64,000 nt of DNA from Candidatus Tepidifontimicrobium thermophilum (GTDB lineage: Bacteria; Sysuimicrobiota; Sysuimicrobiia; Sysuimicrobiales; Sysuimicrobiaceae). The stretch is taken from contig JAVKHO010000010.1 of the NCBI GenBank assembly GCA_031459915.1, positions 1 through 64,000 of the forward strand. The letters run 5' to 3'. Of the stretch, positions 35,458-63,142 are shown one piece after another. The position numbers and the translations under genes are program-made. The number at the start of each line of letters is the position of its first letter. Position 1 is the first letter of the stretch. The notes beneath the pieces were generated by a model, which saw only the letters and a program-made list of their open reading frames with translations, made no database searches and was not told where the DNA came from.

Positions 35458-36246
35458 TCATGGTAAGCGGCCCGGCAGGCTCCACCAGAGGCCCAGGGCA
35501 CCGCTCGCGGCGGTGGCGAGGAGGTTGGTGGCGTCGTTGTCCACCCACCGCAGCCCCCGCACCCGCCGGGTGCGGGCGCCGCACCCACACCTGGTCAGCT
35601 CGGTCTCGCGGCCGCAGGCGGTGCACCGGTAGTGCGCCTGGACAGCCCCTCCCACCGCCGAGTCCAGCAGCATCCCCGCCACGCCCGCTGCCGCGGTCCA
35701 GCCCGCCGGTGCTATGCCCAGCGCGCCCGCCAGCCCGCCGCAGCACACCGCCGCCACCACCCCTGCGGCCGTGCCCGCGGCCGTGATCCCGCCGCTGGCT
35801 CCCGGCTCCAGGGGCTTGCGGTCCCACAGGCGCCGGGGCCTGCCCCCGTAGCGCACCCCGAACTCCGTGGCCCAGGTGTCCGCCCACGCGGCGCTCAGCG
35901 CGGCCGCGAACGCCGGTCCGGCGGAGACCGCCTCCAGACCGTGCAGCCACGCGGCTGCCGCCGCCACCAGCCCGTTCGCCAGGACCTGGCGGGCGTTGCG
36001 CCTGGGCGCCTGCGGGCGCGGCGGCAGGGCGCTGGCGGCGGAGGCGGCGGCCACGAACCCCAGCAGGAGGGCGGCCCAGCCCCAGCCTCCCGCGCCGGCC
36101 ACCACGGTGCCCACCGCCACCGCGGCCGCCGCCCCGTCTGCGGACAGGGCGCCCAGCCGCCAGGCCAGTACCGAAGCCAGGAGGCTTCCCACCAGCGCCG
36201 CGGGCCAGCACGCGGCGGATCTCAGGACGTCCCCGAGCGCCGTCAT
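35458..36246 (-). CDS. DUF92 (TMEM19/VTE6-like) membrane protein
   Basis: RNARQVLANG, ADTWATEFG, GASGGIT, LDSAVG, DNDATN; C-terminal CxxC..CxC; start uncertain. Confidence 0.85.
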   Translation of the reverse strand: MTALGDVLRSAACWPAALVGSLLASVLAWRLGALSADGAAAAVAVGTVVAGAGGWGWAALLLGFVAAASAASALPPRPQAPRRNARQVLANGLVAAAAAWLHGLEAVSAGPAFAAALSAAWADTWATEFGVRYGGRPRRLWDRKPLEPGASGGITAAGTAAGVVAAVCCGGLAGALGIAPAGWTAAAGVAGMLLDSAVGGAVQAHYRCTACGRETELTRCGCGARTRRVRGLRWVDNDATNLLATAASGALGLWWSLPGRLP

Positions 36247-36281
36247 GACCCGAGCTAGAGCCCGAAAAGCCGGTGCGGGGC

Positions 36282-36875
36282 TTACTCGGAAGCCCGCGGC
36301 ATCCGGCCGTCCCACCGCCGGGCGCGGCTCCAGCTCCACCCGAACTGGTCCAGGACCCGCGCCACCACGTGGTCCACCACCTCGTCCAGGCTCCGCGGGT
36401 GGGTGTAGAAGGCCGGGACCGGCGGGAGGATCACCGCACCCAGGTTGGACAGCTTCAGCATGTTCTCCAGGTGGATGCTGCTCAGGGGGGCTTCCCGGGG
36501 CACCAGGACCAGCTTGCGCCGTTCCTTCAGGGTGACGTCCGCAGCCCGGTGGATGAGGTCGTCCGCGAAGCCGCAGGCGATGGCGGCCAGGGTCTTCATG
36601 CTGCACGGCACCACCGCCATCCCCCGGGTGGGGAACGAGCCGCTGGAGATCGTCGCGGCCTGGTCGTCGCGGCGGTGCACCACGCTCGCTAGGCCCAGGA
36701 CGTCCTCCACGCGGTAGTCGGTCTCGTGCTGGATGGTCCGCTCCGCCCACTCGCTGACCACCAGGTGCGTCTCCAGCCCCAGCTCCCGCGCGGCCTCCAG
36801 CAGCCGGATCCCCAAGATGGCCCCGCTGGCCCCGGTGATGGCCACCACCAGCCGCCGGCTCCCCTCGCCCTCCAT
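36282..36875 (-). CDS. ubiX: Flavin prenyltransferase (prFMN synthesis)
   Basis: ITGASG, SSGS, PCSMKTLA, RAADVTLKERR, PREAP, PAFY. Confidence 0.96.
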   Translation of the reverse strand: MEGEGSRRLVVAITGASGAILGIRLLEAARELGLETHLVVSEWAERTIQHETDYRVEDVLGLASVVHRRDDQAATISSGSFPTRGMAVVPCSMKTLAAIACGFADDLIHRAADVTLKERRKLVLVPREAPLSSIHLENMLKLSNLGAVILPPVPAFYTHPRSLDEVVDHVVARVLDQFGWSWSRARRWDGRMPRASE

Positions 36876-37012
36876 ACCAACCCTCCCTCGGCAGTCGGCC
36901 CCATGATGGGCGCCGCACCTCCGGGTGTCAACGACATCGGGTCCGCACCCGAGGCCGTCGGCTGGAGGACCGATGGTCTTCGGCCGGAGGTCTGATCGAT
37001 CTTACCTTTGCC

Positions 37013-37768
37013 GTGGCGGAGGCAGAACCCCTCGTCCGCACGCCCGTCGAACCGCCCCGGCCGGCCCGCGCCTCGGACTCGGTGGTCCGGCACATCAAGG
37101 AGATGGTCCTGCGGGGCGAGCTCCGCAGCGGGCAGCGGCTGCCGTCGGAAAAGGAGCTGGCCCGGCAGTTCGGGCTGAGCCGGGTGACCATCCGCGACGC
37201 CCTGCGGGTCCTGGAGTCCGAGGGCTTCGTGCGCATCCGGGTCGGTGCCGGGGGCGGGGTATTCGTCTCGGTTCCGGGCCCTCGGCACGTCACCGAGTCC
37301 CTGGCGAACCTCCTGCGGGTGAACCGGGCGTCGCTGCGGGCCCTGGCCGAAGCCCGGCTGCTCCTGGAGCCGGAGGTGGCCGCGCTGGCCGCCCAGCGGG
37401 CCCGGCCCAAAGACCTGGAGGCCATGCACGCGGCGGTGGAAGCGGCCCGCGCGGGACGGCAGCGTGGCGATCCCTACTTCATTCCCCACAGCGTGGGGTT
37501 CCACACGGCGCTGGCGGAGGCCTCCGGGAACCCCGTCCTGGTCGCCGCCCTGGCCTCCTTCCGTGCCCTGTTCCACGAGGTCCTGGCGCGGCTGCTGCCC
37601 GACGACGCCATGGCCACCCGGGCGGTGGAAGACCACCAGGCGATCCTGGACGCGGTGCGGGCCCGCGACCCGGAACGCGCCCGGTCCCTCATGCGGGAGC
37701 ACCTGCTGTACTTCGCGGAACGCGTGCAGAAGCTGTCCCGGCGCAGGAGGGTGGGGTCTCCGTGGTGA
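37013..37768 (+). CDS. GntR/FadR-family transcriptional regulator
   Basis: RLPSEKELARQFGLSRVTIRDAL, FH..LAEASGN, DH..I. Confidence 0.93.
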   Translation: MAEAEPLVRTPVEPPRPARASDSVVRHIKEMVLRGELRSGQRLPSEKELARQFGLSRVTIRDALRVLESEGFVRIRVGAGGGVFVSVPGPRHVTESLANLLRVNRASLRALAEARLLLEPEVAALAAQRARPKDLEAMHAAVEAARAGRQRGDPYFIPHSVGFHTALAEASGNPVLVAALASFRALFHEVLARLLPDDAMATRAVEDHQAILDAVRARDPERARSLMREHLLYFAERVQKLSRRRRVGSPW

Positions 37769-40254: not shown

Positions 40255-41814
40255 GTGTCCGTGACCGTGAAGACCCCGCCGAGGCTGCAGTCGCTCCGCG
40301 ACACCGTGGAGTGGCTGCGGGAGGAAGGCCTGCTGCTGGAGACCGAGGTGGAGGTGGATCCCGACCTGGAGATCACGGGGATCCAGAAACACCTGGACGG
40401 TAGCTACCCGATCCTGTTCCGGAAAGTGAAGGGCTACCCGGACTACGAGGTGGTCACCAACCTGTTCGCCAACATGGACGTGGTGGACCGGCTGTTCGGA
40501 TGGGACGGCCCCCGCGACCGGACCCGCAAGCTAGCGTACGCCATCACCCACCCCATCCCGCCCGTGGAGGTGCCGCAGGAGGAGGCGCCCTGCCAGGAGG
40601 AGGTGATCACCACGGACCTGGAGGTGAACCGGTACGTGGTGGCCATCCGGCACACGGAGCTGGAGAGCGAACGCACCATCGGCAGCGGCAACAGCGTGGT
40701 GGTGGGGCCGTACTTCCGGGGCGGCAGCCACATCGGCTACAACCGGATGAACGCCCGGTGGGGCAACGTGTGCACCTTCCAGGCCGCGCCGGGGTCCCAC
40801 ATGTGGCAGGTGATCACCGAGCACTACCACGACGACCGCCCCATCCCCCTCACCATGTGCTTCGGGGTCCCGCCCGCGGCCACCCTCATTGCGGGCAGTG
40901 GCTTCGACTACGTGATCCTGCCCATGGGTGCGGACGAACTGGGGGCCGCGGGCGCGGTCCAGGGCTTCCCCCTGCGCATCGTGAAGGCCCGCACGGTGGA
41001 CGCGTGGGCCCTGGCGGACTGCGACCTGGTCCTGGAGGGCTACCTGCACCCCCGGGACAAGCGGTTCGAGACCGCGGAGGCGGAAGCCGCGGGGGTCCAG
41101 GGCAAGTACCCCTTCCACCCCGAGTGGGCGGGGTACATGGGCAAGGCCTACCGGGCGCCCACCTTCCACGTGACCGCCATTACCCGCCGGCGCCGCACCA
41201 AGCCCATCTTCTACGTCCTGGGGGTGCACACCCTGGACGACAACAACATCGACACCACCGTGCGGGAGGCCGCCATCTTCGAGCTGTGCGAGCGGCTGCA
41301 GCCCGGGCTCATCCACGACGTGCACATCCCGTACTGCATGACCGACTGGGGGGGCTGCATCCTGCAGGTCAAGAAGCGCAACCGGCTGGACGACGGGTTC
41401 GTACGCAACTTCCTGGTCGCCACCATGGCCACCAGCTTCGGGATGCGTCTGGCCATCGCGGTGGACGCGGACGTGGACATCTACAGCATGGACGAGATCC
41501 TGTGGGCCCTTACGACCCGGGTGAACCCCCGCAGCGACATCCTGAACCCCGTGCCGGGCGGGGCCGGGCAGACCTTCGTGCCTGCGGAGCGCCTCACCGC
41601 GGGCGAGCAGGCGTGGACCGCTATGAACATCCGGTTCGAGGGCGGCCTGGCCATCGACGCCACAGTACCCTACGGGTACGAGAAGGACTTCCAGCGGCCC
41701 GTCTACCCCGTGCACCGCGTGGACCTGAAGCGCTTCTTCACCGACGAACAGATCGCGCGGGGCAGATCCGTGATGCGGGGGTGGGTGGAGTTGTTGAGCC
41801 GCACGGGCCGGTAG
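40255..41814 (+). CDS. UbiD-family decarboxylase, o-phthaloyl-CoA decarboxylase-like
   Basis: Motifs as I recall them from PCD/PhtDa: DLEITGIQK, GGSHIGYNRM, PGSHMWQV, HPEWAGYMGKAY, PYCMTDWGGC, IDATVPYGYE, C-terminal RTGR; adjacent CoA-transferase pair and ubiX. Confidence 0.85.
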   Translation: MSVTVKTPPRLQSLRDTVEWLREEGLLLETEVEVDPDLEITGIQKHLDGSYPILFRKVKGYPDYEVVTNLFANMDVVDRLFGWDGPRDRTRKLAYAITHPIPPVEVPQEEAPCQEEVITTDLEVNRYVVAIRHTELESERTIGSGNSVVVGPYFRGGSHIGYNRMNARWGNVCTFQAAPGSHMWQVITEHYHDDRPIPLTMCFGVPPAATLIAGSGFDYVILPMGADELGAAGAVQGFPLRIVKARTVDAWALADCDLVLEGYLHPRDKRFETAEAEAAGVQGKYPFHPEWAGYMGKAYRAPTFHVTAITRRRRTKPIFYVLGVHTLDDNNIDTTVREAAIFELCERLQPGLIHDVHIPYCMTDWGGCILQVKKRNRLDDGFVRNFLVATMATSFGMRLAIAVDADVDIYSMDEILWALTTRVNPRSDILNPVPGGAGQTFVPAERLTAGEQAWTAMNIRFEGGLAIDATVPYGYEKDFQRPVYPVHRVDLKRFFTDEQIARGRSVMRGWVELLSRTGR

Positions 41815-41836: not shown

Positions 41837-43324
41837 GTGGAGGGAACTGTACCGCAGGACCTGCGGGAGTGGCTCCACCGGGTGGCAGAAGCGGGCGAGC
41901 TGGCGGTGGTGGACGCGGAGGTGGACTGGGACCAGGAGATGGCCGCCATCACCTACCTGTGGGCCCGGCGGCCCGGTGCACCGGCCCTGTTGTTCCGCCG
42001 GGTCCGCGGCTACCGGGACCGCGCCAGCTGCCTGTGGAACCTCCTGGGCTCCAGCCTGCGGCGCATGGCCATCACCCTGGGCGCACCGTTGGACAGCACC
42101 GCCCTGGACCTGGTGCGCCACGCCCGCCAGCTGTTCCGCCGCAAGATCCCTCCGGTGTGGGTGGACCCGCAGCAGGCCCCGGTGTACGAGAACCAGCGGG
42201 TGGGCGAGGAGGTGGATGTCCTGAGCCTGCCGGTGCCCAAGCACTGGCCCCGGGACGGCGGCCGCTACGGCGGCACCTTCGACGTGGTCCTCACCCGGGA
42301 CCCGGAAGCCGGGTGGGTCAACGTGGGCACCTACCGCATGATGGTGCACGACCGCAACCACGTGGGCCTGTACGTGTCCCCGGGTAAGGACGCGCGGCTG
42401 CACATCGAGCGGGCGTGGCAACGTGGGGAGGCCGTGGAGGTGGTGGCCTGCTGGGGCGTGCCTCCCGCGTGGCTGGCGGTCTCCTCCCAGGGGTTTCCGA
42501 AGACGGAGTCGGAGCTGGACTACATCGGCGGGGTGCTGGGCCGTCCCTTGGAGCTGGTGCCCGGCCGCACCACCTCGCTGCCGGTCCCCGCGCGGGCGGA
42601 GGTGGCGCTGGAGGGGGTGATCCGCCCCGGCGCCACCCGGCTGGAGGGACCGTTCGGGGAGTTCACGGGGTACTACGGCCGGCCGGAGGACCAGGCCTTC
42701 CTGGTGGAGGTCACCGCGCTGCACCACCGCCACCGGCCCATCCTCACCAACGCCCTGATGGCCGACTACCCGTCCAACGAGCAGGCGGTGCTGTTCGCGG
42801 TAGCCCGGTCTGCCCGCATCTGGGAGGACCTGGAGCGTCTGGGTGTACCCGGGATCCGCGGGGTCTGGGCGCACCCCGCGGCCGCGGGCGGCTTCGGGGT
42901 CACCGTGGTGTCCCTGGAGCAGCGGTACGCGGGCCACGCGCCGCAGGTGCTGGCGCTGGCGGCCCAGTGCCCGGGCGGGGCCTACTACACCAAGTGGGTC
43001 ATCGCGGTGGACGAGGACGTGGACCCCTCGGACACCGACCAGGTCCTGTGGGCGCTGTCCACCCGCTGCAACCCCGCGGAGGACATCGACATCCTGCGGC
43101 AGACCTGGTCCACGTGGCTGGACCCCACGCAGAACCCGCCGGAGGAGCGTCCGTACGGGTCCAAGGCCCTGATCAACGCCTGCAAGGAGCACCGCTACCT
43201 GCACCAGTTCGCGCCGCGCACCCGGCTGGCCCGCAGCGTGTACGAGCGGGTACGGAGCCGGTGGGCGGAGCTCGGGCTCGGAGGCCAGCCGCCCTCGGTG
43301 GTGTCCTTAGAGGAGGACCGCTAG
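41837..43324 (+). CDS. UbiD-family prFMN (de)carboxylase 2
   Basis: DGGRY, NVGTYRM, EGPFGEFTGYY, VDEDVD, WALSTRCNP. Confidence 0.92.
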   Translation: MEGTVPQDLREWLHRVAEAGELAVVDAEVDWDQEMAAITYLWARRPGAPALLFRRVRGYRDRASCLWNLLGSSLRRMAITLGAPLDSTALDLVRHARQLFRRKIPPVWVDPQQAPVYENQRVGEEVDVLSLPVPKHWPRDGGRYGGTFDVVLTRDPEAGWVNVGTYRMMVHDRNHVGLYVSPGKDARLHIERAWQRGEAVEVVACWGVPPAWLAVSSQGFPKTESELDYIGGVLGRPLELVPGRTTSLPVPARAEVALEGVIRPGATRLEGPFGEFTGYYGRPEDQAFLVEVTALHHRHRPILTNALMADYPSNEQAVLFAVARSARIWEDLERLGVPGIRGVWAHPAAAGGFGVTVVSLEQRYAGHAPQVLALAAQCPGGAYYTKWVIAVDEDVDPSDTDQVLWALSTRCNPAEDIDILRQTWSTWLDPTQNPPEERPYGSKALINACKEHRYLHQFAPRTRLARSVYERVRSRWAELGLGGQPPSVVSLEEDR

Positions 43325-43836
43325 TGGACCCCGGCGGGCTGCGCGAGAAGGTGCGCGCCTACTTGGGCGCCCATCGGGTCCTGGTCCTGTGTACCCACGG
43401 CCCCGAGGGTCCCTGGGCGAGCCCCGTGTACTACGCCTCGGACTCCAGCCTGTCCCTGTACTTCTTCTCCGACCCCGAAACCCGACACGGCCGCAACCTG
43501 GCCCGGAGGGGATGGGCCAGCGGCGCGGTCACGGAGGAGTACGAGCGCTGGGAGGAGATCCAGGGCGTCCAGCTGGAGGGGCCCGTGGACGTGCTCACGG
43601 GGCCGGAGCGGGAGGAAGCCCTGCGCGTGTACCTGTGCAAGTACCCGTGGGCCCGGGCCTTCCTCTCGCCCGACGGCGCGTTCTTCGCCGCGGTGGGGAA
43701 CAAGGTGGCGCTGTACCGCCTGCGGCCGGTCCGCGTGGGGTTCACCGATAACCGACAGGGTTTCGGACACCGCGACTGGTTGGAGTTCTCGGAGTCGACC
43801 ACACCAGAGGGGAGGAGTGAGGGACCATGGCTGTGA
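43324..43836 (+). CDS. PNPOx-like FMN-binding split-barrel protein
   Basis: PWASPVYY, YFFS..TRHGRN, IQGVQLEG, FTDN..GFG. Confidence 0.82.
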   Translation: MDPGGLREKVRAYLGAHRVLVLCTHGPEGPWASPVYYASDSSLSLYFFSDPETRHGRNLARRGWASGAVTEEYERWEEIQGVQLEGPVDVLTGPEREEALRVYLCKYPWARAFLSPDGAFFAAVGNKVALYRLRPVRVGFTDNRQGFGHRDWLEFSESTTPEGRSEGPWL

Positions 43837-45278
43837 CGGTGCCGAAGACCGCGGGCTCCCTGGACGCGCGCGACTGGCTCCGCCAGGTGGAGGCGCTGGG
43901 CGAGCTGCAGGTGGTACGGGGGGCGTCCTGGGATCTGGAGATCGGGGTAATCACCGAGGAGGTGCAGAAGCGCCGGAACCCGCCGGGGCCGGCGGTACTG
44001 TTCGACGAAGTCCCTGGGTATCCCGCCGGGTACCGGGTGTTGGTGAACACCCTGGGTTCCCCGCGGCGCCTGGCCCTGACCCTCGGCCTGCCGACGGACG
44101 CCACCGACCGGGAGCTGGTGTCCCTGTGGCGCAAGCGGAGCCGGGAGATCCAGCCGATCCCGCCCGTGGAGGTGCCGGATGGCCCGGTCCTGGAGAACGT
44201 GCTGGAGGGGGACGCGGTGGACCTGCTGCGGTTCCCCGTGCCCCGGTGGCACGAGCGCGACGGCGGGCGGTACATCGGCACCGGCAGCGTGAACATCACC
44301 CGGGACCCCGACGACGGCACCCTGAACGCCGGCACCTACCGCGTCATGGTCCGCGACGCGAGGAGCGCGTTTTTCTACGTCTCACCGGGCAAGCACGGCC
44401 GGATCCACCGGGACAAGTACTTCAGCCGGGGCGAGCCCTGCCCCGTGGTGGTGTGCGCGGGCCACCACCCCCTGGTGTTCCTGGCGGGGAGCCTGGAGCT
44501 CCCCTACGGGCTCAACGAACTGGCTTGGGTGGGCGGGGTGGTGGGCGAGCCGGTGAAGGTGGTGCGGGGGCGGTACACGGGGCTGCCGTTCCCGGCGGAG
44601 GCGGAGATCGCCTTCGAGGGCTTCGCCTACCCGGACCGGTTCGAGCCGGAGGGGCCCTTCGGCGAGTGGACGGGCTACTATGCGTCCTCCGCCCGGCCCG
44701 AGCCGTGGATCGAGGTGAAGGCCGTCTACCACCGCAACGACCCCATCCTCCTGGGATCCCCGCCCGGGAAGCCGCCCACGGAGCTCACGTACTACCGCGC
44801 GGTGTTGCGGTCCGCCCTCATCGAGGAAGCCCTGGAGAAGGCCGGGGTGCCGGACGTGACGGGCGTGTGGTGCCACGAGGCGGGCGGGTCCCGGCTGCTG
44901 GTGGTGGTGGGCGTCCGGCAGCGCTACGCAGGCCACGCCAAGCAGGCAGCCCTGGCGGCGCTGAGCTCGCACCCCGGCAACTACCTGGGCCGCTACGTGG
45001 TGGTGGTGGACGAGGACGTGGACGTCACCGACCTGCAGGAGGTCATGTGGGCGGTGTGCACCCGCTCGGACCCCGAGGAGTCCATCGACATCGTGCGGCG
45101 CTGCTGGAGCGGTCCTTTGGACCCCCGCATCCCTCCGGACCGCAAGGGGTTCAACTCCCGCGCGGTGATCGACGCCACCCGTCCCTTCGAGTGGAAGGAC
45201 CGGTTCCCGCCCGTGGCCTGCTCCAGCCCCGAAGTCCGGGAGCGGGTGCTGGCCAAGTGGGCGGAGGTCCTGCGGTAG
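43827..45278 (+). CDS. UbiD-family prFMN (de)carboxylase 3
   Basis: DGGRYIGT, NAGTYR, EGPFGEWTGYY, VDEDVD, IDATRP. Confidence 0.92.
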   Translation: MAVTVPKTAGSLDARDWLRQVEALGELQVVRGASWDLEIGVITEEVQKRRNPPGPAVLFDEVPGYPAGYRVLVNTLGSPRRLALTLGLPTDATDRELVSLWRKRSREIQPIPPVEVPDGPVLENVLEGDAVDLLRFPVPRWHERDGGRYIGTGSVNITRDPDDGTLNAGTYRVMVRDARSAFFYVSPGKHGRIHRDKYFSRGEPCPVVVCAGHHPLVFLAGSLELPYGLNELAWVGGVVGEPVKVVRGRYTGLPFPAEAEIAFEGFAYPDRFEPEGPFGEWTGYYASSARPEPWIEVKAVYHRNDPILLGSPPGKPPTELTYYRAVLRSALIEEALEKAGVPDVTGVWCHEAGGSRLLVVVGVRQRYAGHAKQAALAALSSHPGNYLGRYVVVVDEDVDVTDLQEVMWAVCTRSDPEESIDIVRRCWSGPLDPRIPPDRKGFNSRAVIDATRPFEWKDRFPPVACSSPEVRERVLAKWAEVLR

Positions 45279-45285: not shown

Positions 45286-46689
45286 ATGCCGGCGGACATG
45301 CGCACGTGGATCGCCCAGCTGGAGGAGGCTGGGGAACTGGTGCGGGTGCGCAGGCCCGTGGACCCCCGCACGGAGATGGGAGCTGTGCTGTACCAGTCCC
45401 GGGAGAAAGCCCTGCTGTTCGAGAACCTGGTAGGCTACCCGGGGTGGCGCAGCCTGGGCATGGCGCCCGCGAACCTGCGTCACGCGGCGCTGGCGTACGG
45501 CACCTCCCTGCAGCGCCTCACCCCCACCGCGGCCGAGCGGTCTCAGCGCCGGATCCCCACGCAGCGGGTAGCCTCCGGCCCCGTGAAGGAGGTGGTGTGG
45601 AAGGGCACGGAGGCGGACGTGACCCGGCTGCCCGTGCACGTCAACGGCAGCGAGGAGCCGCCCTACATCGCCTCGGGCCTGGTCGTCTGCCGGGATCCGG
45701 CCACGGGCAAGCGCAACGTGGCCTTCCACCGCCTGCAGGTGAAGGGCCCGCGCAAGCTGGGGATCCTCATGGTGCCGCGGCACACCCGCCGGATCTACGA
45801 CGCGTACGAGGCCGCGGGCGAGGCGATGCCCGTGGCCATCTACATCGGCCACCACCCGCTGCACTATATGGCGGCCGCCACCAGCGGGCCCTTCGAGATG
45901 GACGAGCTGGAACTGGCGGGCGGCCTGCTGGGCGAGCCGGTCCAGGTGGTCCGGTGCGAGACCAACGACCTGGAGGTCCCCGCGGACGCGGAGATCGTGC
46001 TGGAGGGGAAGGTCCTGCCCCACGTGCGGGAGCCGGAAGGGCCGTTTTCGGAGTTCCACGACTACTACGTGGCGGGGATGGGCCACAACCCCGTGGTGGA
46101 GGTGGACTGCATCACCCTGCGGCAGGACGCCATCTACAAGGCGGTGCAGAACGGGTCGGAGGTCGAGGGCTGCGTGTTCCACAAGGTGCCCCTGGCGGCG
46201 AGCATCTACAACCACATCCGGAGCATCGCCGGACACGTGGACCTGCACAACGTGGTGGTGCTGCCCGGGATCTTCGGGGTGGTGGTGCAGATGACGCCCC
46301 GCTTCTGGGGCGAGGCCAAGCAGGTCCTCATGGGCGTGCTCAGTGGCCCCGTGCTGCACCCCAAGGTCGCCATCGCGGTGGACGAGGACGTGGACCCTTA
46401 CCAGCCCTGGGAGGTCCTGTGGGCTGTCAACACCCGCTGCAACCCCGAGACGGACGTGGTGGTGGTCCCCGGCGTACGGGCACACCCCATGGACCCCTCC
46501 GCGCGGGAGCTGGTGCCTCCCGGCGGCCCGTACTGGAACCGGGTGGGCGGCAAGCTCCTCATCGACGCCACGAAGCCACCCTTGTGCGCGGGGGACGAGG
46601 CGCGCAGGCCCTTCCAGCGGCTGAGGCCCATGGGCTGGGACCGGGTGCGCCTGGAGGACTTTCTCCCCGCGGTCGGGTGTAGGACCTAG
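45286..46689 (+). CDS. UbiD-family prFMN (de)carboxylase 4
   Basis: NVAFHRLQ, EGPFSEFHDYY, HPKVAIAVDEDVD, MDPS, IDATKP. Confidence 0.92.
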   Translation: MPADMRTWIAQLEEAGELVRVRRPVDPRTEMGAVLYQSREKALLFENLVGYPGWRSLGMAPANLRHAALAYGTSLQRLTPTAAERSQRRIPTQRVASGPVKEVVWKGTEADVTRLPVHVNGSEEPPYIASGLVVCRDPATGKRNVAFHRLQVKGPRKLGILMVPRHTRRIYDAYEAAGEAMPVAIYIGHHPLHYMAAATSGPFEMDELELAGGLLGEPVQVVRCETNDLEVPADAEIVLEGKVLPHVREPEGPFSEFHDYYVAGMGHNPVVEVDCITLRQDAIYKAVQNGSEVEGCVFHKVPLAASIYNHIRSIAGHVDLHNVVVLPGIFGVVVQMTPRFWGEAKQVLMGVLSGPVLHPKVAIAVDEDVDPYQPWEVLWAVNTRCNPETDVVVVPGVRAHPMDPSARELVPPGGPYWNRVGGKLLIDATKPPLCAGDEARRPFQRLRPMGWDRVRLEDFLPAVGCRT

Positions 46690-50739: not shown

Positions 50740-52287
50740 TTGGTGTTCCGTCACCCCACGGCGCGGGCTTTGGCGGTCCCCAGGCTGACCTCCTGTCAGC
50801 TCCTGGAGCGGTGGGCGCGGTCGGAGCCGAACCGCCCCGCCCTGGTGTGGGGACCTACCGAGCAGGTGACCACCTACGGCCAGCTGTGGGACACCAGCGG
50901 AAAGGTGGCCCGGGCGCTGCAGGAGCTGGGGCTGGAGAAGGGCGACCGCGTGGTGTTCCTGTCGCCCACCTGCCCGCAGGTCCCCGTGGCGTTTTACGGG
51001 GTACTCCGCGCGGGCGGGGTCGCAGTGCCCCTGAGCCCCCTCAGCAGGCTCCCGGAGGTCCAGCGCTGCCTGCTGGACACCGGAGCCCAGATGGTTTTGG
51101 CTTCAAAGGAGTGGGTCAGCCAGCTGCGGGAGGCCGGCGTGGCCTCTTCCCCGCGCTACGTGCTGAGCCTGGACGAGCTGGAGGAAGCCTCCGAGCCGTG
51201 GCAACAGCCGGAACCCGTGGCCCTGGACCCAGAACACGACCTGGCCTGCATCCTGTACTCCAGCGGCACCACGGGCCTTCCCAAGGGCGCGGCCCTCACC
51301 CACCGCAACGTGGTGGCAGACCTGATGGCCGGGCGGGCGGTGGGGTTCATCACGGAACGCTCCCGGTACGTGCACTTCCTGCCCCTCTGCCACTGCGCGG
51401 GCCTGCTGGCCCTGCTGAATGCGGGGGTGTGCCTGGGCGCCTGCCAGGTGCTGGTCCCGCGGTTTGACGCCCCGGAGGTGTTGCGGCTGATGGAGGCGCA
51501 CCGGGTGCGGGAGCTGTTCGCCGTACCTCCGGCCCTGCGGGAGCTGGTGGAGGCCGCGGAGCGGACGGGGTTCGCCTACCGGGGGCTGCGGTTTCTGAAC
51601 ACCGCGGCCCTGCCCCTGGACGCGGAGCTGGCGCGTCGGGCGGAGGAGGTTTTCGGCTGCCCGGCCACCGAGCACATCGGCATGACGGAGACTGCGGGAC
51701 CGATGAACATCGCGGTCCCGCCCATGAAGGTCAAACGGGGTTCGGTGGGACCTCCGGTGCCGGGGCTGGACCAGCGGGTGGTGGATCCGGAGACCGGTCG
51801 GGACCTGGAGGCGGGAGGGGTGGGCGAGCTGCTGGTGCGGGGGCCGATGGTCACCGTGGGCTACTGGAACAACCCGCAGGCCAACCAGGAGGCGTTCACG
51901 GACGGCTGGTTCCGCACGGGCGACCTGGTGCGGTTCGACGAGGACGGGTACCTGTGGTGGGTGGACCGCCGGAAGGAGATGATCAAGTACAAGGGGTACT
52001 CCATCGCGCCCGCGGAGCTGGAGGAGGTCCTGCGCCAACACCCCGCGGTGCGGGAAGCCTGCGTGGTCCCCCGGCCGGATCCTGAGCTGGGGGAGGTACC
52101 CAAGGCGTTCGTGGTCCGCAGGGCGCCGGTGAGCCCGGAGGAGCTGCTGCGGTTCGTGGAGGAGCGGGTGGCTCCCTACAAGCGGGTGCGCGAGGTGGAG
52201 TTCGTGGACGAGCTGCCCAAGTCCGCGGTGGGCAAGATCCTCCGGCGGGTGCTGGCGGAGCGTGAGCGGGCGCGCGTGGGAGGGTGA
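50740..52287 (+). CDS. AMP-forming acyl-CoA ligase (4CL/LCFA-like)
   Basis: YSSGTTGLPKG, GMTE, RTGD, KYKG..IAPAELE, PKSAVGKILRR. Confidence 0.92.
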   Translation: MVFRHPTARALAVPRLTSCQLLERWARSEPNRPALVWGPTEQVTTYGQLWDTSGKVARALQELGLEKGDRVVFLSPTCPQVPVAFYGVLRAGGVAVPLSPLSRLPEVQRCLLDTGAQMVLASKEWVSQLREAGVASSPRYVLSLDELEEASEPWQQPEPVALDPEHDLACILYSSGTTGLPKGAALTHRNVVADLMAGRAVGFITERSRYVHFLPLCHCAGLLALLNAGVCLGACQVLVPRFDAPEVLRLMEAHRVRELFAVPPALRELVEAAERTGFAYRGLRFLNTAALPLDAELARRAEEVFGCPATEHIGMTETAGPMNIAVPPMKVKRGSVGPPVPGLDQRVVDPETGRDLEAGGVGELLVRGPMVTVGYWNNPQANQEAFTDGWFRTGDLVRFDEDGYLWWVDRRKEMIKYKGYSIAPAELEEVLRQHPAVREACVVPRPDPELGEVPKAFVVRRAPVSPEELLRFVEERVAPYKRVREVEFVDELPKSAVGKILRRVLAERERARVGG

Positions 52288-52291
52288 GACG

Positions 52292-52570
52292 ATGATCCAG
52301 CCCCGCCCGTGGCACGGGCGTCACGCGGTGGTGACGGGCGCGAGCCGGGGGATCGGGGACACGGACTTGTTCCGGGAGGCGGCGGAGCGGGTGGTGCGGA
52401 CCACGGGCCGCAGCGACGAGTCCGCGCGGGAGGAGCTGGTGCGGTACAACCCGCAGGGCCGGCGGGTCCGGCCCGGGGAGGTGGCGGACGCGGTGGCGGG
52501 GCTGTGCCTGCGGGGTTGCGCTTCCGTCACGGGCCAGTGCCTGGTGGTGGCGGGCGGGGAAGTCATGTGA
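52292..52570 (+). pseudogene. SDR with large in-frame internal deletion
   Basis: [10 protein letters not shown] joins directly to the C-terminal DTD...NPQGR..PGEVA...VTGQ..VAGG; NAG and YxxxK core missing; 92 aa. Confidence 0.8.
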
Positions 52571-53392: not shown

Positions 53393-54574
53393 TTGGAGCT
53401 GCACCACCTGCGGTGGCCTTTCTTCGACGCCCACCACCGGGCGCTGGCCGAGGACCTGCGGGCGTGGGCAGCCCGGGAGCTCGGGGACCTGGTGGAGCGG
53501 GAGGAGCTGGACCCCGACGGGGCGGCGCGGGAGCTGGTGTGCAGGCTCGGTCAGGCGGGGTGGCTCCGGTACTGCGTGCCCGCGGCGTACGGAGGTGTGC
53601 ACGCCCGAGTGGACGTGCGGAGCCTGTGCCTGGCCCGGGAGATCCTGGCGTACCACAGCGGCCTTGCGGACTTCGCGTTCGCCATGCAGGGGCTCGGCAG
53701 CGTGCCCATCGCCCTGTTCGGGAGCGAGGAGCTCCGAGCCCGCTACCTGCCCGGGGTGGCCCGGGGTGAGCGCATCGCCGCCTTCGCCCTTTCGGAGCCA
53801 CAGGCGGGCTCAGACGTGGCGGCCATCCAGACCACGGCCCGACGGGTGGGGGATCACTACGAGCTCGTGGGCACGAAGACGTGGATCTCCAACGCGGGGC
53901 TGGCGCACCAGTACGTGGTGTTCGCACGCACCGGCCCCGGCAAGGAAGGGCTCACGGCCTTTGTGGTGGACGGCCACGCGGAGGGACTGCAGGTGTCCAG
54001 CCGCATCCGTACCCTGAGCCCCCACCCCCTCGGCACCCTGACCCTGGACGGCTGCCGGGTCCCGGCAACGCACCGCCTGGGCGAAGAAGGCCAGGGGTAC
54101 GCGGTGGCCCTGCGGACCCTGGATACCTTCCGGGCCACGGTAGGGGCCGCGGCGGTGGGCTTTGCCCGCAGGGCCCTGGACGAGGCGGCCGGCTACAGCC
54201 GGCAGCGCGTGGCCTTCGGCCAGAGGCTGTCGGACTTCCAGCTGGTGCGGTGGAAGCTGGCGTGGATGGCCACGGAGCTGGACGCCAGCGCGCTGCTGGT
54301 GTACCGGGCCGCGTGGGCCCACGACTGCGACGCGGGCCGGGGGCCCCAGGACAGCTCGATGGCCAAGCTGTACGCCACGGAAGCCGCCCAGCGGGTGGTG
54401 GACGAGGCGGTCCAGCTGCACGGGGCGTGGGGCGTGGTGGCGGGAAGCAGGGTGGAGCGCCTGTACCGGGACGTGCGGGCCCTGCGCATCTACGAGGGGA
54501 CCTCGGAGATCCAGGCCCTGGTGGTGGGCCGGCAGGTGGTGCGGGAGAGCCCCCGGCAGGAGGTGGCGCGGTGA
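53393..54574 (+). CDS. Acyl-CoA dehydrogenase (AbmD-like)
   Basis: [44 protein letters not shown]. Confidence 0.9.
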
Positions 54575-55338
54575 ACAACCAGGACGAGGCGATCCGGGTC
54601 CGTAGGGAGGACGGCGCGTGGTGGGTCACCCTAAACCGCCCGCCCCACAACGTGCTGACCACCGCGGTGATGCGGAAGCTAGAGGGTGCGCTGCGGGAGG
54701 CGTTCGCAGACCCCGCCGCGCGGGTCGTGGTCCTGACCGCGGAGGGACGGTCGTTCTGCGCGGGCGTGGACGTGGCGGAGCACACCGCGGAGAAGGTCCA
54801 CGAGATGCTGGAGGCTTTCCACACCCTGTGCCGCACCCTCGTGGACGCGGACGTACCCACCGTGGCCGCGGTGGGAGGCGCGGCCCTGGGTGGAGGGTGT
54901 GAGCTGGTGGCGCTGTGCGACGTGGTGGTGGCTTCCGAGAGCGCCACCTTCGGCCAGCCTGAAGTACGGGTTGGGGTCTTCCCGCCCGTGGCGGCGGCGG
55001 CCTTCCTGACCCTCCTGGGCAAGCAGGCGGTGGTCCCCGTGCTCACGGGAGAGGTCCTGACCGCGCGGCAGGCCCGCGAACTGGGCCTGGTCACCGACGT
55101 GGTGGCCGCGGAGGAGATGGAGCAGGCGGTGCGCAGGCGGGTAGAACAGCTCAGTGCCCACAGCGCCGCGGTCCTGCGCCTGGCCAAGCGGGCAGCCTTG
55201 GGTTCTTTCCGGCACGCCTTCCACCAGGCGCTGGAAGAGGCCGAGCGCGTGTACGAGGAGCTCATGCGAACCGAGGACGCCCACGAGGGGCTGCGGGCGT
55301 TTCTCGAAAAACGCAAGCCCACTTGGCAACACCGGTAG
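54571..55338 (+). CDS. dch: Cyclohexa-1,5-diene-1-carbonyl-CoA hydratase-like crotonase
   Basis: [50 protein letters not shown]; next to bcr genes. Confidence 0.7.
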
Positions 55339-55354: not shown

Positions 55355-56077
55355 ATGGGAGTGGGGCGGGCGCAGATGGTACCGGGACCCCGGCTGACCG
55401 CGGACGCGGTGCGGGTCCTGCGAGAGGCGCTAGAGCGGGCCGGGGAAGCCGTCATGGTGGTGGACGGCCGGCAGCGGGTGGTGCTGTGGAACACGGCTGC
55501 GGAACGGCTTTTGGGCTGGCGGAAGGAGGACGTGCTGGGCCGGCCGTGTTACCGGGTGGTCACCGGACACGACCGAACCGGCCACCTGGTGTGCTGCCCA
55601 GGGTGCCCGGAGTTCGTGATGGCCCGCACGGGCGAGCCCATCCCGCCCCGGGACGTGTGCTACCGGAGCCGGGAGGGCCGGTACGTCTGGGTGAACCAGA
55701 GCACCCTGGTGGTGCGGTTCGGGCCGGACGAGGACGAACACTGGGTCGTACACCTGTTCAGGGACATCACCCACCAGCGCCGGGTGGAGGAGCTGGTGGA
55801 CCTGCTCACCCAGCGGGAGGGGTTCGACGCCGGGGCCGCGGCTAGCCAGCCCCTCACCCGGAGGGAGCGGGAGGTGCTGAGCCTGCTGGCTCAGGGGATG
55901 GACACCCAGGCCATCGCCCGGGCCCTGTTCCTGTCTACCGCCACCGTGCGCAACCACGTGCAGAACCTCATGCGCAAGCTGGGCGCCCACACCCGGGCCG
56001 AGGCGGTGGCGCGCGCGTTGAAGGAGGGCCTGTTCCCCCGCAACGCCCTGGTGGATCAGACGCACCACGAAAGATGA
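55355..56077 (+). CDS. PAS-LuxR transcriptional regulator with Cys-rich PAS
   Basis: WNTAAERLLGW..DVLGRPC, CCPGC; LTRREREVL..TVRNHV..KLG. Confidence 0.9.
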   Translation: MGVGRAQMVPGPRLTADAVRVLREALERAGEAVMVVDGRQRVVLWNTAAERLLGWRKEDVLGRPCYRVVTGHDRTGHLVCCPGCPEFVMARTGEPIPPRDVCYRSREGRYVWVNQSTLVVRFGPDEDEHWVVHLFRDITHQRRVEELVDLLTQREGFDAGAAASQPLTRREREVLSLLAQGMDTQAIARALFLSTATVRNHVQNLMRKLGAHTRAEAVARALKEGLFPRNALVDQTHHER

Positions 56078-56090: not shown

Positions 56091-56135
56091 TTGGACTTGC
56101 GCGTCTTAGAGGGTACGGTTTGACTGACCGGTCGG
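56091..56135 (+). promoter_or_regulatory. Putative bcr promoter plus operator
   Basis: TTGGAC-N17-TACGGT followed by GACTGACCGGTCGG (56122-56135); 12 nt identical to the site at 46746. Confidence 0.65.
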
Positions 56136-56151
56136 ATAAGAGGGTTACGCC

Positions 56152-60292: not shown

Positions 60293-61165
60293 ATGGAGGA
60301 CGTGCGGGCCATCGACTTCATGTACTACGTAGCGACCCCGGAGTTCATCGCGCGGTGGAACAAGGCCAAGGAGGGGGAGCTGGTCTGCCGCATGGAGCGG
60401 GCCCTGGGCGGCAGCCTGCCCAGCTTCCCCAGCTTCGAGGCCATGCTGGCGGCCATGGACGAGGCCGGGGTGGAGAAGGTGTTCATCACCCAGTGCAAGA
60501 TGTGGTCCCACCGCAACCACTGGATGTACATGGACACCCGGCTGGAGGAGGTCCTGCAGTACACCACCCGCTACCCCGACCGGTTCGTGGGGCTGGCGGG
60601 CTACAACCCGTACCGGATCACGGAGAGCCTGCAGGAGATCGAGCGGGCGGTCAAGCAGCACGGGTTCAAGGGGGTGTACGTCCACATCTACGGCTTCGAC
60701 ATCCCCCTCCACGACCGACGCATGTACCCCCTGTACGCCAAGTGCGTGGAGCTGGACGTCCCGGTGTCCATGCAGGTGGGACACGTGCTGGAGGGCATGC
60801 CCTCGGAGCACGGCCGTCCGATTTACCTGGACCGGATCCTCTGCGACTTCCCGACCCTGAAGGTGGTGGGGGCCCACACGGGCTGGCCCTGGGTGGAGGA
60901 GCTCATCTCCGTGTGCTACAAGTGGGAGACCGTGTGGATCGGCATCGACGCATGGATGCCCAAGTACCTGAAGCCGGAGCTGGTGCAGTTCATGAACAGC
61001 CGCCTGGGCCAGGACCGGTGCCTGTGGGGGACCAACGGGCTGCCGTGGAAGCAGAGCCTGGAGCAGCTCCGGGCCCTGGGGCTGAAGCCTGAGGTGTACC
61101 GGAAGGTGGTGCGGGACAACGCCGTCGAACTGTTCCGGCTGGAGGTCCCCGTGCGGGCCGGCTAG
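60293..61165 (+). CDS. Amidohydrolase family (Amidohydro_2) TIM-barrel protein
   Basis: YPDRFVG, YPLYAKCVELDVP, QVGH, GAHTGWPW, WGTNG. Confidence 0.85.
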   Translation: MEDVRAIDFMYYVATPEFIARWNKAKEGELVCRMERALGGSLPSFPSFEAMLAAMDEAGVEKVFITQCKMWSHRNHWMYMDTRLEEVLQYTTRYPDRFVGLAGYNPYRITESLQEIERAVKQHGFKGVYVHIYGFDIPLHDRRMYPLYAKCVELDVPVSMQVGHVLEGMPSEHGRPIYLDRILCDFPTLKVVGAHTGWPWVEELISVCYKWETVWIGIDAWMPKYLKPELVQFMNSRLGQDRCLWGTNGLPWKQSLEQLRALGLKPEVYRKVVRDNAVELFRLEVPVRAG

Positions 61166-61212: not shown

Positions 61213-61968
61213 ATGGAGTTCCAGGATCGCGTGGCGCTGGTCACGGGCGGGGCGAGCGGCATCGGTCGGGCAACCTGCCTGGCCCTGGCCGCTCGAGGGG
61301 CGCGGGTGGCGGTGGCGGACATCAACGCGCAGGGTGCCGAACAGGTGGCCGAGGAGATCCGACGCCAGGACCGGGAAGCCCTGGCCGTGGGCATGGACGT
61401 CACGAACCGGGCCCACGTGGCCCAGGCGGTGCAGCAGGTCCTGGATCGCTGGGGCCGGGTGGACGTGCTCATTAACGCCGCGGGTTGGGATCGCATCGTT
61501 CCCTTCCTGGAGAGCACCGAGGACCTGTGGGACCGGGTGATCAACATCAACTTCCGCGGGGTGCTGAACACCTGTCACGTGGTCCTGCCCCACATGGTGC
61601 AGCGGGGCGGCGGGGTGGTGGTGAACATCAGCTCCGACGCGGGGCGCGTGGGCTCTTCAGGCGAGACCGTGTACTCGGGCGCCAAGGGGGCCGTGATCGC
61701 CTTCAGCAAGGCCCTGGCGCGGGAGGTGGCGCGCCACAACATCCGGGTGAACGTGGTGGCGCCGGGCATCACGGACACTCCCCTGCTGCAGCAGATCATC
61801 CAGGCGGGCAACGAGAAGCTCATCGACGCCATCGTCCGCAGCACCCCCCTGCGCCGCATGGCCCGGCCCGAGGAGGTGGCGGAGGCGGTGGTGTTCCTGG
61901 CCTCCGACCGGGCTTCGTTCATCACCGGCCAGACCCTGAGCGTCTCGGGCGGCCTCACCATGGTGTAG
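61213..61968 (+). CDS. SDR, BadH-like (2-hydroxycyclohexanecarbonyl-CoA dehydrogenase family)
   Basis: TGGASGIG, NAAGWD, SSDAGRVGSSGE.VYSGAKG, TGQTLSVSGGLTM. Confidence 0.85.
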   Translation: MEFQDRVALVTGGASGIGRATCLALAARGARVAVADINAQGAEQVAEEIRRQDREALAVGMDVTNRAHVAQAVQQVLDRWGRVDVLINAAGWDRIVPFLESTEDLWDRVININFRGVLNTCHVVLPHMVQRGGGVVVNISSDAGRVGSSGETVYSGAKGAVIAFSKALAREVARHNIRVNVVAPGITDTPLLQQIIQAGNEKLIDAIVRSTPLRRMARPEEVAEAVVFLASDRASFITGQTLSVSGGLTMV

Positions 61969-61970
61969 CC

Positions 61971-62513
61971 GTGCGGTCCACAGAGGAGCTGGTCCGAGAC
62001 CACGAGGTGATCCTGGGCGTTCTGGACGGGCTGGAAGCGCGCCTGCGGGCCGTGCAGGCCGGCGGCAGCCTGGACCCCGGCTACGTCCGCGAGGCGGTGG
62101 CCTTCAGCCAGGGCTTCGTGGATCGCTGCCACCACGGCAAGGAGGAGCACTGCCTGTTCCCGTGCCTGGAGCGGCGGGGAGTGCCCCGGGAGGGCGGCCC
62201 CATCGGCGTGATGCTGGCCGAACACGAGACGGGGCGCCAGCTGGTCCGGAGGATCGCGGAAGCGGTGGACCGGTACGAGGCAGGCCGCGGAGACCTGGGG
62301 GAGGTGGTGGACCTGGCCTGGCAGTACGTGGAGCTGCTGCGGGCCCACATCGCGAAGGAGAACGAGGTCCTGTTCCCCATGGGGGAGGCGGTGCTGCACC
62401 CGTCCGATGACGCGGACGTGGGCCGCTGCTATGATGGGGTGGAACATCAGCAGGGAGCGGAGGAGCACCGACGGCTGACGCAGCTGGCCGCGCGCCTGAG
62501 CAGACCGTCGTAG
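61971..62513 (+). CDS. Hemerythrin-like (HHE) protein
   Basis: DH, CHHGKEE..LFP, GGPIGVMLAEH, HIAKENEVLFP. Confidence 0.88.
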   Translation: MRSTEELVRDHEVILGVLDGLEARLRAVQAGGSLDPGYVREAVAFSQGFVDRCHHGKEEHCLFPCLERRGVPREGGPIGVMLAEHETGRQLVRRIAEAVDRYEAGRGDLGEVVDLAWQYVELLRAHIAKENEVLFPMGEAVLHPSDDADVGRCYDGVEHQQGAEEHRRLTQLAARLSRPS

Positions 62514-62539
62514 ACCCCAGCGCTGGCCTCCGGCCGCCG

Positions 62540-63142
62540 GTGGCGGCGCTGGAGGCGCAGCTGTCGCCGAAGCAGGAGCACCTGCTCCGCTGCACGTACC
62601 AGGTGCTGGCGGAGGGGGGCCTGCGGGGTCTTTCCCTGCAGCGGGTCGCGGATCGGGCGCAGGTCAGCAAGGGGATCCTGCTCTATTACTTCGGGACCAA
62701 GGAGAACCTGGTCCTGGCCACGCTGCGGTGGGTGCTGGCGCGGGTGGCCCGGCGCATCTACGCCGCGGTGCGGCGGGCCCGCACCCCCGAGGAGAAGATC
62801 CAGGCTACCATCGACGCCATCTTCGTGGATCCCAAAGCCAACCGGGACTTCTACCTCGTCTACACGGACCTGCTGAGCAGCGCCGCCCGGCAGCACCGGT
62901 TCCAGGAGCTGAGCGCTACCTTCCGGGGCATTGTGGACGCCGTGTACGGCCAGATCATCGAGGAGGGCGTGCGGGCAGGGGCCTTCCGGGTTCGGGACGT
63001 ACAGGAAGCCGCGGCGGTGATGCGGGCCCTGGTGGACGGTCTGTTCCTCCAGTGGCTGCAGGAGCCCGACCCTGAGGCCACCCACGCCCAGACCCGGGAG
63101 CGCTGTAAGCACGCCCTGTTCACCTACCTGCGGGGCTCCTGA
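62540..63142 (+). CDS. TetR-family transcriptional regulator
   Basis: SLQRVADRAQVSKGILLYYFGTKENL; BetI-like C-terminus. Confidence 0.92.
   Translation: MAALEAQLSPKQEHLLRCTYQVLAEGGLRGLSLQRVADRAQVSKGILLYYFGTKENLVLATLRWVLARVARRIYAAVRRARTPEEKIQATIDAIFVDPKANRDFYLVYTDLLSSAARQHRFQELSATFRGIVDAVYGQIIEEGVRAGAFRVRDVQEAAAVMRALVDGLFLQWLQEPDPEATHAQTRERCKHALFTYLRGS

Follow-up and report, generated by a model that had tools for sequence, protein, structure and literature searches.

The bamA gene serves as a field marker for anaerobic degraders of single-ring aromatics. Its product (Oah/BamA) acts with Dch and Had in the canonical benzoyl-CoA pathway of Thauera, Aromatoleum and Geobacter, and high conservation of OAH throughout the bacteria that use the Dch/Had/Oah pathway is described in PMC5742626. 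The mbd cluster of Azoarcus/Aromatoleum sp. CIB (PMC4424350, PMC11971306), with the solved reductase MbdONPQ (PDB 9g87), likewise relies on enzymes of the Dch, Had and Oah types (PMC5742626). The BCR, MBR and BZD types of reductase and the BzdO ligands are treated in PMC11971306, and the bad route of R. palustris is described with BadK, BadH and BadI (PMC9795900). Proteins of the amidohydrolase fold are encoded in anaerobic aryl-CoA clusters as well. BamU (Gmet_2147) of Geobacter metallireducens has no assigned function according to PMC12016498, and the same source ranks ThnN (N47_E41360, thn operon) as the strongest candidate for opening the first ring in N47, an organism without oah. ThnN was insoluble in E. 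coli (PMC13689101), and an expressed amidohydrolase lies beside reductase genes in TRIP_1 (PMC6849830). The idea that an amidohydrolase opens such a ring is already in print for naphthalene (ThnN), as a candidate only. No description of an amidohydrolase replacing Oah was found in the literature covered, which largely excludes subscription journals.

Here a 64,000-nucleotide stretch of contig JAVKHO010000010.1 (the window) was analysed by codon-scored gene calling and family scans (Pfam, and TIGRFAM/NCBIfam profiles with curated cut-offs). A cluster of about 27 kb (36282-63142) encodes aromatic-acid entry enzymes, a predicted benzoyl-CoA reductase and AMH (60293..61165, + strand), an Amidohydro_2-fold protein (PF04909, 120 bits) and candidate ring-opening hydratase/hydrolase in the place of Oah. 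G000 denotes the window's genome and other G labels comparison genomes, L labels loci, C labels contigs, of G000 unless another genome is named (C2 carries the window), and X labels sequencing runs.

The cluster resembles the canonical pathway in its reductase, its Dch-like hydratase and its entry by 4-hydroxybenzoyl-CoA reductase (HCR)-like and phthaloyl-CoA decarboxylase (Pcd) enzymes. In contrast to that pathway, OAH was found neither in the window's genome nor in 38 of 44 AMH genomes. It shares two short ATPases and a TetR regulator with palindromic operators (candidates in the window) with the mbd cluster. The mbd route has Dch-, Had- and Oah-type enzymes, which we take to be encoded by mbdWXY, whereas the window has a short-chain dehydrogenase/reductase (SDR) and AMH, and Had and Oah were not found. 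Like the bad pathway of R. palustris and Aromatoleum, it has a class I reductase and a BadH-like SDR adjoining a presumed hydrolase; unlike it, the window cluster has no BadI (the best match is MenB) and no ali genes, and its hydratase is Dch-like.

In the scheme proposed here, the Dch-like hydratase would act after an MBR-type, ATP-dependent aryl-CoA reductase in an oxygen-independent benzoyl-CoA pathway, the BadH-like SDR would take over the step of Had, and AMH would take over the ring-opening step of Oah. We infer every reaction of this scheme from gene content, closest relatives, the lack of Oah, Had and BadI and the context pattern, all of which were observed. AMH probably opens the ring on one of two substrates, enoyl or saturated. 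Hydration and hydrolysis of 6-oxocyclohexenoyl-CoA by AMH as an Oah analogue is slightly favoured. With reservations, we also lean towards a broader reading, in which AMH would be a metallohydrolase-fold ring opener unrelated to the crotonase-fold Oah/BadI. With an SDR in place of Had, it would form a widespread variant in uncultured phyla of soils and hot springs (Sysuimicrobiota, Acidobacteriota, Methylomirabilota and Binatota) that is invisible to bamA/oah surveys, and would give a thermophilic handle on BamU/ThnN-type enzymes.

The reductase module and AMH

The catalytic subunits are encoded by BcrC/MbdN (56152-57309) and BcrB/MbdO (57321-58619), followed by two single-domain ATPases of the reductase (58622-59461 and 59464-60267), all on the + strand. 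This one operon combines two HgdD-type catalytic subunits with two different ASKHA ATPases. MbdONPQ is the closest solved relative of both catalytic subunits, and BcrC is about 51% identical to MbdN by hand count. BcrC and BcrB reached 421 and 396 bits with MbdN and MbdO, 166 and 91 with HadC and HadB, and 125 and 89 with BzdN and BzdO. The cluster cysteines of BcrB (C90/C123/C372) and BcrC (C78/C105/C333) align with those of MbdO and MbdN, and the ATPase cluster cysteines are C133/C172 and C125/C164. These comparisons predict a class I benzoyl-CoA reductase of the MBR type, and G000 yielded no other class I reductase.

An earlier note on this DNA, made from the letters alone, had proposed a class I reductase and had set grouping with the 2-hydroxyacyl-CoA dehydratases beforehand as the test; the subunits side with MbdN/MbdO, away from these dehydratases. 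The possibility that the four genes encode a dehydratase system draws on the common Pfam family and on equivalog cut-offs that were not reached (score/cut-off: BcrC 319/421, BcrB 218/487, BzdN 135/454, BzdO 98/449). It was rejected, with next to no weight left to it, for the MbdN/MbdO scores are far above those for HadC/HadB, the two ATPases differ, and close relatives adjoin an Oah over the cut-off (L110, L111). In a BcrC tree (quick IQ-TREE, 67 rows; alignments below 330 aa and two duplicates left out; MbdN not in the tree), G000 stands apart from the rows over the TIGR02263 and TIGR03190 cut-offs. BcrC matches in G308:C27, G411:C22, G443:C8 and G533:C252 are split into two adjacent pieces at the same point (residues ~156-169), which is consistent with a common insertion.

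The Dch-like dienoyl-CoA hydratase (54571..55338, +) matches TIGR03189 over its full length (162 versus a cut-off of 292). It is 46% identical to the hydratase of L116, which lies between an over-cut-off Oah and a Had-like gene. The gene occurs in 11/11 AMH genomes of the phylum and in 0/4 family members without the reductase. Its structural search returned no Dch-named PDB match and no characterised close structure.

The genome was searched for the enzymes that usually follow. The best Oah/BamA profile score in G000 is 88 (cut-off 464). The best score for Had, an MDR alcohol dehydrogenase, is 151 (cut-off 339), and its three candidates fit other families better. The best BadI match (322 versus 468) is MenB, which exceeds the MenB cut-off and lies in the men cluster. 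MenB was also the only match in G000 (39%) to a protein query with OahS, a crotonase found beside bcrC in related genomes, and 12 crotonase-family matches are present in all. The claim of the earlier note that canonical ring-opening genes are missing therefore extends to the whole genome, where Oah, Had and BadI stay below their cut-offs; its reader did not recognise the amidohydrolase and the SDR as likely replacements of Oah and Had. The SDR (61213..61968, +), the candidate Had replacement, has TIGR03206 (BadH) as its best model (299 versus a cut-off of 431), and no characterised close structure was found for it.

AMH was modelled by AlphaFold2 as a TIM barrel (pLDDT 92.6). Its closest structure is the uncharacterised BB4693 (3irs; Z 28.2, root-mean-square deviation 2.8, 266 aligned). 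Aromatic decarboxylases rank next, and the hydratase LigJ and the C-C hydrolase LigY come further down (Z ~20-21); no characterised close structure was among the structural matches. The modelled fold would permit both half-reactions of Oah and demonstrates neither. His164 and His195 are kept in 16/16 close homologues. The family is tight, with 73-95% identity across phyla, and full-length clusters below it drop to ~50%. The best 120 homologues show 77-93% identity, with Methylomirabilota and Deltaproteobacteria among the names on their records, and the Atlas clusters, all uncharacterised, are mostly from Acidobacteriota, Methylomirabilota and Binatota. BamU and ThnN are likened to AMH by description only, as amidohydrolase-fold proteins of anaerobic aryl-CoA clusters, and neither name was returned among the named AMH matches.

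AMH, Oah and OahS across genomes

Gene context was counted in the best 80 of 586 metagenome matches to AMH, picked by similarity and many of them on short contigs. The SDR is adjacent in 65 of these loci, reductase genes occur in 41 and a Dch-like gene in 22; restricted to the 44 loci with 1 kb of sequence either side, these numbers become 39, 30 and 16, respectively. An Oah-type gene was found in 0/92 AMH-region loci (best match 36%).

The genome censuses used profile screens for Oah at E<=1e-40 or 1e-38, the large screens scoring the top 6 or 9 candidates per genome. Among 94 phylum genomes, BcrC was found in 25 and AMH in 11; this set includes G025, which has no AMH, Oah or BcrC match, and a 36% AMH paralogue of G067 was dropped. 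Ten other phylum genomes carry OahS (320-335 aa) within ~5 kb of bcrC. OahS scores about equally to BadI and Oah, below both cut-offs, and sits in the ring-opener position; examples are L097:10887-11864 and L099:7221-8183, and there are 16 further weak TIGR03200 matches. BcrC was present in 56 of 301 sampled Acidobacteriota, of which 48 have an Oah-family gene and 4 have AMH. In 201 sampled genomes of the acidobacterial class of G147 (a 44% AMH paralogue of G406 dropped; G498 unpublished), AMH occurs in 32, all 31 genomes with BcrC have AMH, and none has an Oah over the cut-off. Pooled, reductase genes are present in 45/45 AMH genomes (BcrC in 44; BcrB plus ATPases at a contig end in G430), and 58/66 BcrC genomes without AMH have Oah or OahS.

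The genes beside the reductase occur in four combinations. Had with OahS is found in L099-L101, SDR with OahS in G019, G060, G062, G063, G072, G073 and G078, SDR with AMH in the window, and Had with AMH in L074, L108, L158 and L159. The BadH-like SDR thus occurs elsewhere with the same crotonase that accompanies Had-like genes (the Had-like proteins tested have TIGR03201 as best model, 235-266 versus 339). The order AMH-hydratase-Had equals the order Oah-Dch-Had of L099-L101 and L116. In L043, AMH stands with a BZD-type reductase over the cut-off, and the AMH+SDR label changes at least 5 times on the BcrC tree. The two slots interchange independently beside the reductase. The simplest reading is that the SDR does the job of Had and AMH that of Oah.

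In a Bad-type route, further reduction of the ring would give cyclohex-1-ene-1-carbonyl-CoA. The hydratase would then take the part of BadK and the SDR that of BadH, and AMH, still the ring opener but with a saturated substrate, would stand in for BadI and cleave 2-oxocyclohexanecarbonyl-CoA to pimeloyl-CoA. The BadH model of the SDR, the equal BadI and Oah scores of OahS, the acyl-CoA dehydrogenase within the cluster and the use of BadK/H/I downstream of a class I reductase in R. palustris (PMC9795900) are in its favour. It is nevertheless unlikely, as AMH accompanies Had-like enzymes in four loci and the BZD-type reductase in L043, the hydratase resembles those from Oah/Had clusters, and the acyl-CoA dehydrogenase is found in only few AMH loci.

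Several observations weigh against AMH as the ring opener of a benzoyl-CoA pathway. The reductase subunits are all below the curated BCR- and BZD-type cut-offs, and the Dch-like hydratase, the SDR and the HCR-like subunits are below their own. Amidohydro_2 proteins usually bind metal by an HxH on beta-1 and an Asp on beta-8; AMH is without the beta-1 HxH (IDFMYY instead) and has Asn248 at beta-8, and its metal use is uncertain because of these two features. By HMM (hidden Markov model), 8/66 BcrC genomes have neither AMH nor Oah/OahS, one of them (G200) with an OahS fragment. A sensitive OahS protein query left 38/44 AMH genomes without Oah/OahS (G498 left out) and found OahS at 53-70% in a separate locus in the other six (G001, G002, G003, G308, G410 and G430); in two of these, G001 and G002, it is the first gene of a beta-oxidation operon that follows valS. 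Since the HMM screen had missed 4 of these 6 genomes, the initial exclusivity was partly a threshold effect. The census genomes are related and not independent, and counts are given without a probability. NarG was not found in G000. On 44500-64000, RNA run X21 gave 7 read pairs, all with first mates on the minus strand, which is thin support; RNA run X22 had no reads there, and the contigs of run X12 may be of DNA origin. BamU is benzoate-induced in Geobacter metallireducens though BamA/Oah is present (PMC1924859).

Perfect AMH/Oah exclusivity, which had seemed to hold by HMM, was rejected on the six OahS genomes, and the hypergeometric values derived from it (3e-4 and 2e-4) were discarded. 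AMH and OahS are able to coexist, and most AMH genomes do without Oah. At the valS-paaF locus, G000 keeps the operon without OahS, whereas G001 and G002 retain OahS; the lineage of G000 appears to have lost it.

The retained OahS, together with BamU beside BamA in Geobacter, the non-canonical metal site and the 12 crotonase-family matches of G000, could mean that AMH is accessory. It would then perform the hydration half only (LigJ-like), substituent removal or thioester salvage, and an unrecognised crotonase or thiolase would open the ring. This is doubtful, because no Oah-type enzyme was found in 38/44 AMH genomes, no second crotonase accompanies the module (the PRK08258 enoyl-CoA hydratase occurs in 5/80 AMH loci), and AMH occupies the Oah position in Had operons.

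Should AMH be the ring opener, Oah markers would be scoring some uncultured bacteria as incomplete or missing them, and the amidohydrolase fold would gain a new type of C-C cleavage at an unusual active site. AMH would also bear on the open question of the first ring cleavage in anaerobic naphthalene degradation, as posed for ThnN (PMC12016498, PMC13689101).

Entry routes and regulation

The first genes of the cluster form a phthalate module. UbiX flavin prenyltransferase (36282..36875, - strand; TIGR00421, 270 bits, cut-off 109) is a single copy in G000, with prenylated FMN supply for the UbiDs as its predicted role. A GntR/FadR-type regulator (37013..37768, +; PF00392 and PF07729) heads the UbiD unit, followed by a family III CoA-transferase pair of the PhtSa/PhtSb kind (37762-39018 and 39020-40231, +) and UbiD1 (40255..41814, +), an orthologue of Pcd. 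UbiD1 reached 823 bits with PDB 8oz5/8pmk (runner-up 149). The closest module is PhtSa/PhtSb/PhtDa/PhtDb on plasmid 2 of A. aromaticum EbN1 (PDB 8oz5), with UbiX also present: the CoA-transferases are 48% and 52% identical to the pair beside its Pcd-like ubiD, and UbiD1 is 68% identical to the plasmid protein. The window differs from it in gene order, in the GntR regulator, in having no transporter and three extra UbiDs, and in its chromosomal position beside the central pathway. With Pcd, a two-subunit CoA-transferase and UbiX together, the module is complete by sequence, and the phthalate route suggested earlier is well supported as an encoded route. Anaerobic phthalate routes are covered in PMC13040137.

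Three further UbiDs follow on the + strand. UbiD2 (41837..43324) is over the TIGR00148 cut-off and has an EGPFGE motif, and the EGPF motif is retained in UbiD2-4. UbiD3 (43827..45278), 44% identical to UbiD2, has 7pda as its best PDB match (389 bits), and UbiD4 (45286..46689) has 6h6x/6h6v (239 bits). We take 7pda to be phenazine-carboxylate decarboxylase and 6h6x furan-carboxylate decarboxylase. A PNPOx-like flavin-binding protein (43324..43836, +; PF01243) lies between UbiD2 and UbiD3. The four UbiDs listed in the earlier note are all present; UbiD2-4 could be linked neither to hydroxybenzoates nor to isomers of phthalate, and their profile and best-structure matches fix no substrate. UbiD2 and UbiD3 were rejected as phenylphosphate carboxylase, with TIGR02724 (PpcB) scores of 272 and 300 (cut-off 469) and a better candidate on C32. 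This candidate locus (L154, G000:C32 8462-14447) holds a PpcB-like UbiD (456 versus 469), a PpsA/PpsB-like pair and HAD phosphatases, and is a candidate entry from phenol to 4-hydroxybenzoate. The UbiD block varies between genomes. Pcd occurs in 16/94 phylum genomes (the unpublished G025 among them) and in 1/11 other family genomes, also in some genomes without BcrC, and G089 and G090 have deletions within the block.

The HcrC/HcrA/HcrB-like molybdoenzyme (46777-47256, 47259-49667 and 49679-50680, +) is closest to 4-hydroxybenzoyl-CoA reductase and is called HCR-like on its profile and structure matches. The HcrA-like subunit reached 602 bits with 1rm6_A (runner-up 306) and the HcrB-like subunit 188 bits with 1rm6_B. 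C124, C140, C154 and C163 of the latter align with the four insertion cysteines of HcrB, presumably the ligands of the extra [4Fe-4S] cluster. Subunits A and B have HCR as their best model; the score/cut-off values are 829/995 (A), 298/405 (B) and 184/258 (C).

An acyl/aryl-CoA ligase (50740..52287, +; benzoate-CoA ligase model 235 versus a cut-off of 375) precedes an SDR remnant of 92 aa (52292..52570, +), in which residues ~22-187 are missing and both ends are 74-76% identical to the intact 261-aa SDR of L005. The PRK08258 enoyl-CoA hydratase (52581-53390, +; NF006107, 463 versus 330) and an acyl-CoA dehydrogenase (53393-54574, +; 57% to C21_7209) come next. UbiD2-4, the ligase and the hydratase/dehydrogenase pair would likely add further (hetero)aromatic acids. 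The trio of SDR remnant, enoyl-CoA hydratase and acyl-CoA dehydrogenase resembles the trio of an AbmA-like cluster on C21 and recurs in some AMH loci. That C21 locus (1335-17531; L148 and L155), labelled by sequence inspection, presumably contains tryptophan dioxygenase- and kynureninase-like genes, a 798-aa AbmA-like monooxygenase, and MarR, enoyl-CoA hydratase, acyl-CoA dehydrogenase, ligase, RidA and SDR genes.

Beyond the window, L001 (G000:C2 67795-81127) carries a glutaryl-CoA dehydrogenase-like gene, PaaH- and PaaF-like genes, two benzoate-CoA ligase-family genes over the cut-off, a divergent PaaA/D/B/C-like epoxidase, two aldehyde dehydrogenases and one crotonase. The glutaryl-CoA dehydrogenase identity of its acyl-CoA dehydrogenase is our own reading of the sequence. 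L001 is possibly an aerobic, Box-like benzoyl-CoA route built from Paa-type parts; BoxB was not found in G000.

These loci bear on whether the module handles substituted aryl-CoA (methyl-, hydroxy- or aminobenzoyl-CoA), while benzoyl-CoA from Pcd and HCR would pass to the PaaA/C-like epoxidase 10 kb downstream under oxygen. The closest characterised reductase uses 3-methylbenzoyl-CoA, the trio is like that of the AbmA-like cluster, PaaA/C-like and benzoate-CoA ligase-family genes stand at C2 71-81 kb, and Pcd exists in genomes without BcrC. This arrangement is highly improbable, because the reductase is the sole class I enzyme found in G000, its genes and the HCR-like genes have a common candidate operator, and AMH also accompanies a BZD-type enzyme.

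The candidate operator is a perfect 14-bp palindrome upstream of hcrC (46747..46760), with a second copy of 2 mismatches upstream of bcrC (56123..56136). The window contains 2 matches, a number that 4/100 shuffles reached. The hcrC palindrome is at the same place in G089, G090 and G091 and not in G084 and G092, and the bcrC palindrome is retained in 7 loci with bcrC identity of at least 90% and not in more distant loci. Its conservation at both sites in close relatives suggests that hcr and bcr are jointly controlled by the TetR/BetI-type repressor (62540..63142, +; PF00440 and PF13977), the candidate binder, which would likely repress both through the common palindrome. The palindrome differs from the ATACN10GTAT of MbdR described in PMC4424350.

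A PAS-LuxR regulator (55355..56077, +; PF00989 and PF00196) precedes bcrC. At the end of its gene a second inverted repeat of the TGCATC-N-GATGCA type is present upstream of bcrC in family members (window 56077-56152, and L009 and L125), a possible LuxR site. The hemerythrin-domain protein (61971..62513, +; PF01814), beside the module in 13/80 AMH loci, may sense oxygen or remove it, to the benefit of the oxygen-sensitive reductase. An IclR helix-turn-helix protein (63275..63940, +; PF09339) follows the cluster and was seen in the genus loci L004 and L005 only.

Host, respiration and neighbouring loci

G000 is a 2.6-Mb metagenome-assembled genome of 96% completeness. The nearest named relatives of BcrB are Ca. 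Sysuimicrobium calidum (81%) and Ca. Fervidifonticultor secundus (71%), and the BcrC tree places G000 with Ca. Sysuimicrobium calidum. The host is therefore assigned to Sysuimicrobiota (CSP1-3), probably Sysuimicrobiaceae, and the same evidence bears out the earlier view of a non-proteobacterial host. The best DNA holders of the stretch are mostly hot-spring metagenomes. The words aromatic, benzo- and phthal- are absent from the main text of the two descriptive papers of the phylum (PMC11604079, PMC11962464), whose supplementary tables might list bcr genes; benzoyl-CoA genes are noted in metagenome-assembled genomes of Binatota and Acidobacteriota (bioRxiv 2025.11.25.690425). The cluster would add predicted aromatic and phthalate catabolism to Sysuimicrobiota. 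Its upstream parts are of known kinds in a new host and arrangement, and the ring-processing module amounts to a new form of the known pathway.

DNA contigs obtained in a separate study (run X4) span 30/30 bins of 44500-64000 with few differences, and the same-genus genome G091 has the identical gene order from ubiX through IclR; the cluster is therefore native and no assembly artefact. Intergenic spacing is -10 to 137 bp. The GC content is 0.68-0.74 (about 0.71 genome-wide) and no tRNA genes were found within the window. A recent genomic island was rejected on the absent GC shift, the absent tRNA and the conservation across genus and family. The gene list of the earlier note stood, with every listed gene intact, and its term island did not. 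Five genes had been overlooked in it: those for the PNPOx-like protein, the SDR remnant, the PRK08258 enoyl-CoA hydratase, the acyl-CoA dehydrogenase and the hemerythrin. The DUF92 gene (35458-36246), with which its interval began, is probably outside the cluster, as it is missing from that position in G091. The funnel is also not self-contained as had been supposed: the genes for phenol entry, for benzoate ligases and for the lower pathway are located outside it, and no transporter gene is part of the cluster. G000 encodes Pps/PpcB-like genes (C32), a glutaryl-CoA dehydrogenase-like gene, beta-oxidation genes, and 2-oxoacid:ferredoxin oxidoreductases and ferredoxins outside the cluster.

Heme-copper oxidase-like, AbmA-like and PaaA/C-like genes are also present, and a facultative aerobe fits because of them. 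On C22 (11346-17511, L144), a dimethyl sulfoxide (DMSO) type II enzyme of 1162 aa, which stays under every cut-off, is encoded together with genes for beta and gamma subunits and a chaperone. It is a candidate anaerobic terminal reductase or hydroxylase. Homologues are found in L012, L020, L026, L030, L108, L126 and L160-L162, often adjoining AMH/bcr loci in other lineages.

Elsewhere in the window are a complete pur cluster (7206-20439), as described earlier, and a cluster for a sulfhydrogenase-like NiFe hydrogenase with its maturation genes (24444-30638), so judged from its letters. Further along C2 (98349-100191, L002), in a gene-poor stretch at 94-100 kb, two open reading frames with LAGLIDADG-like starts are probably homing endonucleases in rRNA introns.

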